Of a DNA stretch of 64,000 nucleotides, positions 26,225-27,004 are shown piece by piece. Each line of letters starts with the position of its first letter. Within the stretch, counting starts at the first letter, position 1. The DNA lies in NCBI GenBank assembly GCA_021537435.1, contig GCA_021537435.1_3050.1. One strand, written 5' to 3'. The notes beneath the pieces are model-generated. The model did not search any database. It saw only the letters and a program-made list of their open reading frames with translations, and had not been told where the DNA came from. A program made the position numbers and the translations under genes. The DNA comes from a phage.

Positions 26225-27004
26225 ATGGCAGTAGCAGGACCGTGGGTAGGATCGTCTGCAGTAATTAATACAGGACAAAATTGGATGGGTGGCGCGGCCC
26301 AACGATTAAGAATGGGTGCTCCATTTTGGATGAGTAATATGATAGGTCGATCTGTTGAAGTAATTCACACGCTTGGAGCAGACCATAACTTCAATGGTCA
26401 ATGGTTCCGAGATAGATGTTTTGAGGCAGGTAGTGCACCTATAGTGTTTAATATTACTGGAGATTTAGTATCATATTCTAGAGATGTTCCTTTATTCTTC
26501 ATGTATGGAGATACACCTAATGAATACGTTCAACTGAACATACACGGCGTAACGATGTATGGTCGTGGTGGGAATGGTTGGGCCGCTGGTGCAATTGGAG
26601 CATCTGATGGCGGTGTATGTATCCAGAATGATATAGGTGGACGTCTGCGAATTAATAATGGCGGAGCTATTGCCGGTGGCGGCGGTGGTGGTGGTGGTTA
26701 TTCACAAGCCAACAACTGGGCGGGAAAATATGTTTGTGGCGGCGGTGGCGGTCGTCCATTCGGCTTAGGCGGAAATAATGGTGCTCGATGGCCTGGTGGT
26801 AATGCTAGTTTGACGTCTCCGGGTGCTGGCGGTAATACTGGTACAGGGTATTATGCAGGTGGAGGTGGTGAAGTTGGTCAGCCAGGACAATATGCTAATC
26901 CAGGTTCTGGTTATTCAACACCTCCGACAAATCCTGGTGCTGCTGTAGCAGGATCAGCTCCAACATGGCAGAATGTTGGAGCAATATATGGTTCAAGAGT
27001 ATAA
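26225..27004 (+). CDS. 38: tail fibre adhesin gp38, T2-type with glycine-rich motifs
   Basis: [28 protein letters not shown]...; repeated poly-Gly tracts ([14 protein letters not shown]); GGAGG RBS; track ORF starts at upstream TTG. Confidence 0.8.

Follow-up and report, generated by a model that had tools for sequence, protein, structure and literature searches.

A T2-type gp38 adhesin in a T-even phage of the AR1/PP01/HY01 group, predicted to recognize O157/Shigella-type OmpC

Introduction

Does gene 38 of this phage encode a helper of tail fiber assembly or the protein with which the virion recognizes its host, and, if the latter, which receptor would it bind? The question arises from position and name. 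In the window (the whole 64-kb stretch of phage DNA analyzed here), the gene order is 34-35-36-37-38-t, and gene 38 lies directly 3′ of gene 37 and 5′ of gene t, as it does in HY01, PP01, AR1, T2, T6, and S16. The gp38 of T4 (NP_049864.1) has the same gene name and is likewise encoded between gene 37 and t, and it is a tail fiber assembly chaperone that is not part of the virion (see also the note in the NC_000866 annotation). The distinction between T2-type and T4-type gp38 dates from the 1980s. A preliminary description of this DNA had placed the gene 38 product among the T2/K3/Ox2-type adhesins and had predicted that it sets the host range; we followed up both proposals.

On its sequence, the phage clearly belongs to Tequatrovirus and, within it, to the AR1/PP01/HY01 group. 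Over the interval from 20 to 32 kb of the window, none of the deposited phages was identical, and the best was UFV-AREG1 at 96.3%. The gp38 protein itself is already known: it has been deposited and annotated, and for its near-identical PP01 counterpart both the crystal structure and the interface with OmpC have been worked out.

Results and Discussion

Gene 38 encodes an intact, glycine-rich protein

Gene 38 (26225 to 27004 on the plus strand, including the stop codon) is intact from its ATG at 26225 to its TAA at 27002 to 27004 and encodes a protein of 259 aa, which we assign, from the open reading frame, Pfam matches, and identity to HY01 and PEC04 gp38, to the T2-type adhesins of the long-tail-fiber tip. 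A Shine-Dalgarno sequence, GGAGG, occupies 26215 to 26219, 5 nt upstream of the ATG. A longer version of the gene starting at the TTG at 26213 was considered and rejected; this codon lies inside a hairpin (see below) and upstream of the Shine-Dalgarno sequence, and it is used by none of the homologues, all of which begin with MAV.

Glycine makes up 62 of the 259 residues (23.9%) and is concentrated in the C-terminal part of the protein (33% in aa 113 to 259 versus 11.6% in aa 1 to 112). This is the highest glycine fraction among the window's 43 open reading frames of 150 aa or more and about twice that of any other, the second being gp37 at 12.4%. The glycine tracts on which the preliminary description had built its proposal were each found in their place. 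The longest is a G8 tract, GGGGGGGG (aa 151 to 158; 26675 to 26698, plus strand), in which G152 to G157 are invariant across T2, T6, M1, Ox2, S16, and PP01. It is followed by GGGGGR (aa 172 to 177; 26738 to 26755), which forms part of a GGGGGRP motif (aa 172 to 178; 26738 to 26758, plus strand) whose residues G172 to G176, R177, and P178 are all invariant in the alignment described below, and by GGNNG (aa 182 to 186). An additional glycine-rich motif, GGGG (aa 212 to 215; 26858 to 26869, plus strand), emerged from the alignment. At the nucleotide level, the G8 tract consists of consecutive GGT and GGC codons, and in the Shigella phages sb1 and sb2 the tract is shorter by one glycine codon, which suggests in-frame slippage or recombination inside the glycine motif.

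Transcriptional context of gene 38

Exact matches to the T4-type late promoter consensus TATAAATA were found on the plus strand at 17119 to 17126, just upstream of gene 34, and at 22189 to 22196, 24 nt ahead of the start codon (ATG) of gene 36. Late promoters ahead of genes 34 and 36 fit a late structural gene. In a plus-strand scan, no such consensus immediately preceded genes 37, 38, or t, and gene 38 is therefore probably transcribed as part of the late message of gene 36. A late transcript spanning genes 36, 37, and 38 thus probably begins at the match at 22189 to 22196, whose function is deduced from sequence and position. The conserved downstream neighbor, gene t (27035 to 27691, plus strand), encodes the holin (Pfam Phage_holin_T, E = 4e-116).

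Between the gene 37 stop codon and the gene 38 Shine-Dalgarno sequence, RNA folding placed a C(UUCG)G tetraloop hairpin (26197 to 26214, plus strand), GAGGGGC-UUCG-GCCCCUU, whose stem has seven pairs; the folding energy of the 56-nt segment was -16.7 kcal/mol (z = -2.2). We considered and rejected this hairpin as an intrinsic terminator of gene 37, since no U-tract follows it on the plus strand and the terminator scan flagged the minus strand only. We therefore regard it as a stabilizing UUCG hairpin between the two cistrons; it resembles the very stable intercistronic UUCG hairpins classically known from T4 mRNAs. Across the whole 64-kb window, ARAGORN found no tRNA genes and an Rfam scan at the gathering threshold returned no match.

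Elsewhere in the cluster, the hinge connector gp35 (gene 35, 21042 to 22157) matched the Pfam family ILEI (Interleukin-like EMT inducer/FAM3) above its curated cutoff (E = 4.7e-8), a match that is probably due to the "GG domain" reported to be common to phage gp35 and FAM3/POMGnT1 proteins.

Both gp38 domains belong to the adhesin family

Two Pfam families account for the protein, whose glycine pattern is thus not fortuitous. GP38 (PF05268, "Phage tail fibre adhesin Gp38") matched over its entire profile (positions 1 to 218 of 218; E = 4.1e-72, 243 bits against a cutoff of 25), and so did Gp38_N (PF21721; positions 1 to 40 of 40; E = 9.1e-21, 74 bits against a cutoff of 25). The Gp38_N match delimits an N-terminal gp37-attachment domain (aa 1 to 40; 26225 to 26344, plus strand) that aligns with residues 1 to 40 of S16 gp38 (6F45_D). 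In related phages, the N-terminal gp38 domain provides attachment to the gp37 tip (PMC12032242, PMC12892980). The remainder (aa 41 to 259; 26345 to 27001, plus strand) corresponds to the receptor-binding domain, a beta-helix followed by a polyglycine-II sandwich, as judged by its near-identity to the PP01 construct of aa 41 to 259 (PDB 9V85). In a comparison against the PDB, residues 37 to 259 matched chain A of 9V85 at 222 of 223 positions (99.6%); this 2.1-Å crystal structure contains the receptor-binding domain of PP01 gp38 fused to GFP. S16 gp38 (6F45_D) aligned over the full length (E = 9e-53). From this near-identity and the S16 match, we expect the fold of gp38 to be a polyglycine-II sandwich from which loops protrude.

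We aligned nine gp38 proteins, those of the window, T2, T6, M1, Ox2, S16, PP01, AR1, and HY01. K3 was left out, since its record (X04747) contains gene 37 only, and the OmpA binders Ox2 and M1 stand in for it. Invariant columns comprise G113 to G118, G129-G130, G152 to G157, G172 to P178, G200/G202, and G212 to G221; conservation extends to P246, W248, V251, and G252 near the C terminus and to the N terminus as well. The segments between the glycine motifs vary in both sequence and length. This layout of glycine-rich motifs and hypervariable segments was reportedly first described by the Henning laboratory. Its structural basis is the polyglycine-II sandwich with protruding loops (PMC12032242, PMC12892980).

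With both Pfam domains matched, the glycine motifs invariant, and the segments between them variable, the T2/K3/Ox2-type adhesin architecture proposed in the preliminary description is borne out, as is the kinship with T2, Ox2, and S16 gp38 that it suggested examining by alignment; these proteins, together with those of T6 and M1, are 49 to 67% identical to gp38 and share its glycine motifs. The gp38s of T2, T6, Ox2, and M1 are the classical adhesins of the Henning laboratory for FadL/OmpF, Tsx, or OmpA. They belong to the same Pfam family and have conserved termini, but their hypervariable segments are unrelated to those of the window protein, which implies different receptors. S16 gp38 (50% identity over the full length) has the same three-domain layout and glycine motifs and is paired with a gp37 whose C terminus is homologous, but its loops are unlike those of the window protein in sequence and length, and its target is Salmonella OmpC.

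The partner gp37 argues against a T4-type chaperone

If the gene 38 product were instead a T4-type chaperone, it would assist the folding of gp37 and be absent from the virion, and gp37 itself would bind the receptor. The location of the gene between 37 and t fits this reading, as does the older label "distal long tail fiber assembly catalyst" kept in some relatives' records (JS98 and teqhal). The proteins themselves do not. T4 gp38 is 183 aa long, is not glycine rich, and is dissimilar in sequence to the window protein; a BLASTP search for similarity between the two returned noise alone (11.5 bits, E = 17), and T4 gp38 searched against Pfam matched no family, GP38 included.

The architecture of gp37 settles the matter. 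[quoted passage not shown] T4 gp37 contains the Pfam domains Collar and Phage_fiber, with the HxH repeats of the receptor-binding needle, whereas Pfam found neither domain, and a motif search found zero HxH motifs, in the window gp37. By its domain content, the window gp37 belongs to the S16/T2 type, the receptor-binding tip of T4 being absent. It also brings its own intramolecular chaperone, a C-terminal segment of 111 aa (aa 991 to 1101; 25855 to 26187, plus strand) that begins at Ser991 (SDIRVKKD) and is identified by a Peptidase_S74 match on aa 991 to 1050 (E = 1e-12) and by S16 gp37; the final 193 residues align with 6F45_A (E = 1.6e-43), the S16 gp37 fragment that was crystallized with gp38 sitting on its tip. 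By analogy, aa 991 to 1101 are predicted to be cleaved off after trimerization. A gp37 with its own Peptidase_S74 chaperone and without the T4 tip, paired with a gp38 that shares no detectable similarity with T4 gp38, upholds the statement of the preliminary description that gp38 is not a T4-type chaperone, and we consider the chaperone reading to have a negligible chance of being correct. Nothing in the sequence opposes an adhesin role.

Existing labels for gene 38, including those in HY01, PEC04, and AR1, are "receptor recognition protein" or "tail fiber protein; host specificity." The record of phage SF (MH359124.1, 101 to 880) encodes an intact 259-aa gp38 but leaves gene 38 unannotated; it assigns the label "tail fiber protein" to a short minus-strand open reading frame, which corresponds to the spurious minus-strand open reading frame at 26911 to 27102 in the window.

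The receptor-binding loops point to O157/Shigella-type OmpC

The closest relatives of the window gp38 share far more than its motifs. A tblastn search against phage genomes found 100% amino acid identity to HY01 gp38 (AHK11096.1), and direct comparison showed PEC04 gp38 (AKN44639.1) to be identical as well; all 259 aa agree in both, the DNA is 99.1% identical, and the neighboring genes are alike. The gp38s of pSs-1, ECp13, Sfk20, UFV-AREG1, AR1, and PP01 differ from it at 2 to 9 positions. That of PP01 has equal length and domain order, with eight substitutions in aa 8 to 32 of the gp37-attachment domain and a single one, Ala228 in place of Ser228, in the receptor-binding domain (aa 41 to 259).

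We located the five receptor loops by the boundaries of loops A to E in the PP01 structure, namely, aa 119 to 124, 161 to 170, 184 to 189, 204 to 209, and 225 to 231 (PMC12892980). Loops A (WAAGAI; 26579 to 26596), B (26705 to 26734), C (NNGARW; 26774 to 26791), and D (NTGTGY; 26834 to 26851), all on the plus strand, are the same as in PP01. Loop E, the main specificity loop (26897 to 26917, plus strand), reads NPGSGYS where PP01 has NPGAGYS. In PP01, specificity depends on the entry of loop E into the cleft between loops 5 and 7 of OmpC; G208 in loop D cross-links to OmpC loop 5 and Y230 in loop E to OmpC loop 7, and the GVIN insertion that OmpC loop 7 has in O157 but lacks in K-12 is required (PMC12892980).

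With loops A to D equal to those of PP01, loop E one residue off, and HY01 gp38 identical, we predict that the receptor is OmpC of the O157/Shigella type, excluding OmpA, Tsx, FadL, and OmpF, and that the host pattern would be like that of HY01, covering O157:H7 and probably Shigella and leaving out K-12. HY01 forms plaques on all tested O157:H7 and Shigella flexneri strains, and MG1655 and DH5alpha are negative (PMC5201272). We are highly confident that the best explanation of gene 38 is a monomeric cap adhesin of the long tail fiber, belonging to the T-even AR1/PP01/HY01 group and having O157/Shigella-type OmpC as its receptor.

By analogy with the S16 complex structure, with cross-linking and complementation experiments on PP01 (PMC12892980), and with work on HY01, from which the presence of gp38 in the virion, its binding to OmpC, and the roles of its loops are extrapolated, adsorption would proceed as follows. 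The gp37 chains would trimerize with the aid of their own C-terminal chaperone (aa 991 to 1101), which would then be cleaved away, and the N-terminal 40 residues of gp38 would dock onto the tip thus exposed. The glycine motifs would form polyglycine-II helices that pack into a rigid sandwich, from which the five loops would protrude. These loops would bind extracellular loops 5 and 7 of O157-type OmpC, loop E would enter the cleft that separates these two, and loop B might also touch the outer core of the lipopolysaccharide (LPS). Binding of gp38 to OmpC would constitute the reversible first step of adsorption.

It is also conceivable that gp38 is an adhesin for another receptor, such as OmpA, Tsx, OmpF, FadL, or LPS alone, as in T2, T6, K3, and Ox2. 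Single loop changes can shift receptor use, PP01 mutants with Q161H/R and W189R being able to infect an ompC null strain (PMC6027323), and the one substitution in the window protein, S228, falls at the apex of the specificity loop. Set against this are the match of the five loops to PP01 save residue 228, the occurrence of the same S228 protein in HY01 and PEC04, both isolated on O157:H7, and the loops of the OmpA, Tsx, or FadL binders Ox2, M1, T6, and T2, which are unrelated in sequence and length. Furthermore, gp38 phylogeny is reported to be predictive of the receptor (PMC12032242). We consider a receptor other than OmpC improbable.

Gene 37 mosaicism and host range beyond gp38

The preliminary description had gone further and held that gp38 sets the host range. 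As far as the choice of receptor is concerned, this holds. The PP01 mutations that altered host range or adsorption (Q161H/R, W189R, T207I, A123V/E, Y159H, and N163H) all lie in gp38 loops, with Q161H/R and N163H in loop B and W189R in loop C (PMC6027323), and the gp38 receptor-binding domain alone moved PP01 specificity to a T4/T2 chimera (PMC12892980). For host range overall the claim oversimplifies, since deletions of ~600 bp in PP01 gp37 raised adsorption by themselves (PMC6027323). LPS, short tail fibers, and postadsorption factors matter for host range too.

The gene 37 partner varies considerably among relatives. The window gp37 is 96.5% identical in amino acid sequence to that of UFV-AREG1 and 90% identical to that of PEC04, while HY01 gp37 has an internal deletion and is 912 aa long versus 1,101 aa. 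Nucleotides 23200 to 24700 within gene 37 are 97 to 100% identical to UFV-AREG1 and 60 to 96% identical to HY01 and PEC04, and the 3′ end of gene 37 together with gene 38 (25700 to 27000) is 98 to 100% identical to HY01, PEC04, and UFV-AREG1. By these identities, the window gene 37 is a full-length recombinational mosaic. HY01 gp37 lacks ~190 aa found in the window gp37, and the missing region is the one that PP01 deletes under laboratory selection. The N-terminal attachment domain of gp38, itself variable among relatives, must fit the gp37 tip: PP01 gp38 was nonfunctional on T2 gp37 and worked there only after exchange of its N-terminal 113 residues (PMC12892980).

It is therefore worth weighing whether gp38 merely picks the receptor, with practical host range coming mainly from gp37 shaft length and mosaicism, access through the O-antigen, gp12 together with LPS, and intracellular defenses. 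The PP01 gp37 deletions speak for such an arrangement, as do the mosaic gp37 of the window, unlike that of HY01 in nucleotides 23200 to 24700, and the presence of identical or nearly identical gp38s in phages of O157:H7, Shigella sonnei, S. flexneri, and LF82. The transfer of specificity by the gp38 receptor-binding domain alone weighs on the other side, and the arrangement would in any case complement the adhesin model rather than contradict it. We regard it as a serious possibility but not as the favored one.

Natural variation at residue 228 of the specificity loop

The sole difference between the window and PP01 receptor-binding domains, Ser228 (codon TCT, 26906 to 26908), sits at the apex of loop E. 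We asked how this position varies among close relatives. Across the window and 21 relatives, residue 228 is serine in 8 proteins, alanine in 11, asparagine in 2, and valine in 1, and residue 208 is glycine in 17, arginine in 3, and alanine in 1, with one deletion. No other positions of the receptor-binding domain are as polymorphic as these two, 228 ranking first, and both fall in loops that contact OmpC. Variable gp38 positions among the 21 close relatives number 29, of which 10 fall within aa 4 to 32. Ser228 is a common natural polymorphism.

Work on PP01 found hydrophobic contact to be important at the loop E apex and proposed that residue 228 contacts Ile229 and Leu267 of OmpC; infection survived A228V and A228L but not A228D or loss of A228, and A228S lay outside the set of mutants assayed (PMC12892980). 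Since Ser228 places a polar residue at a site of proposed hydrophobic contact, affinity for OmpC or the range of OmpC alleles accepted may differ from that of PP01. Taking this further, it is possible, though in our judgment rather unlikely, that Ser228 is functional and tunes the set of accepted OmpC alleles, for example, from that of O157 to one that also includes OmpC of Shigella. Where relatives have a stated host, Shigella association was seen in 5 of 7 phages with S228 and 2 of 10 with A228 (Fisher's exact test, P = 0.058, with shared ancestry ignored). We do not claim that S228 tracks Shigella hosts; the trend is weak, and the Shigella phages KNP5 and sb1, which carry A228, contradict it.

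The practical value of these results lies in a confident prediction of receptor and host for this phage and otherwise chiefly in correct annotation of the gene. Beyond that, residues 208 and 228 are natural hot spots of variation in the gp38 adhesins of this group and, as such, could serve in host range engineering.
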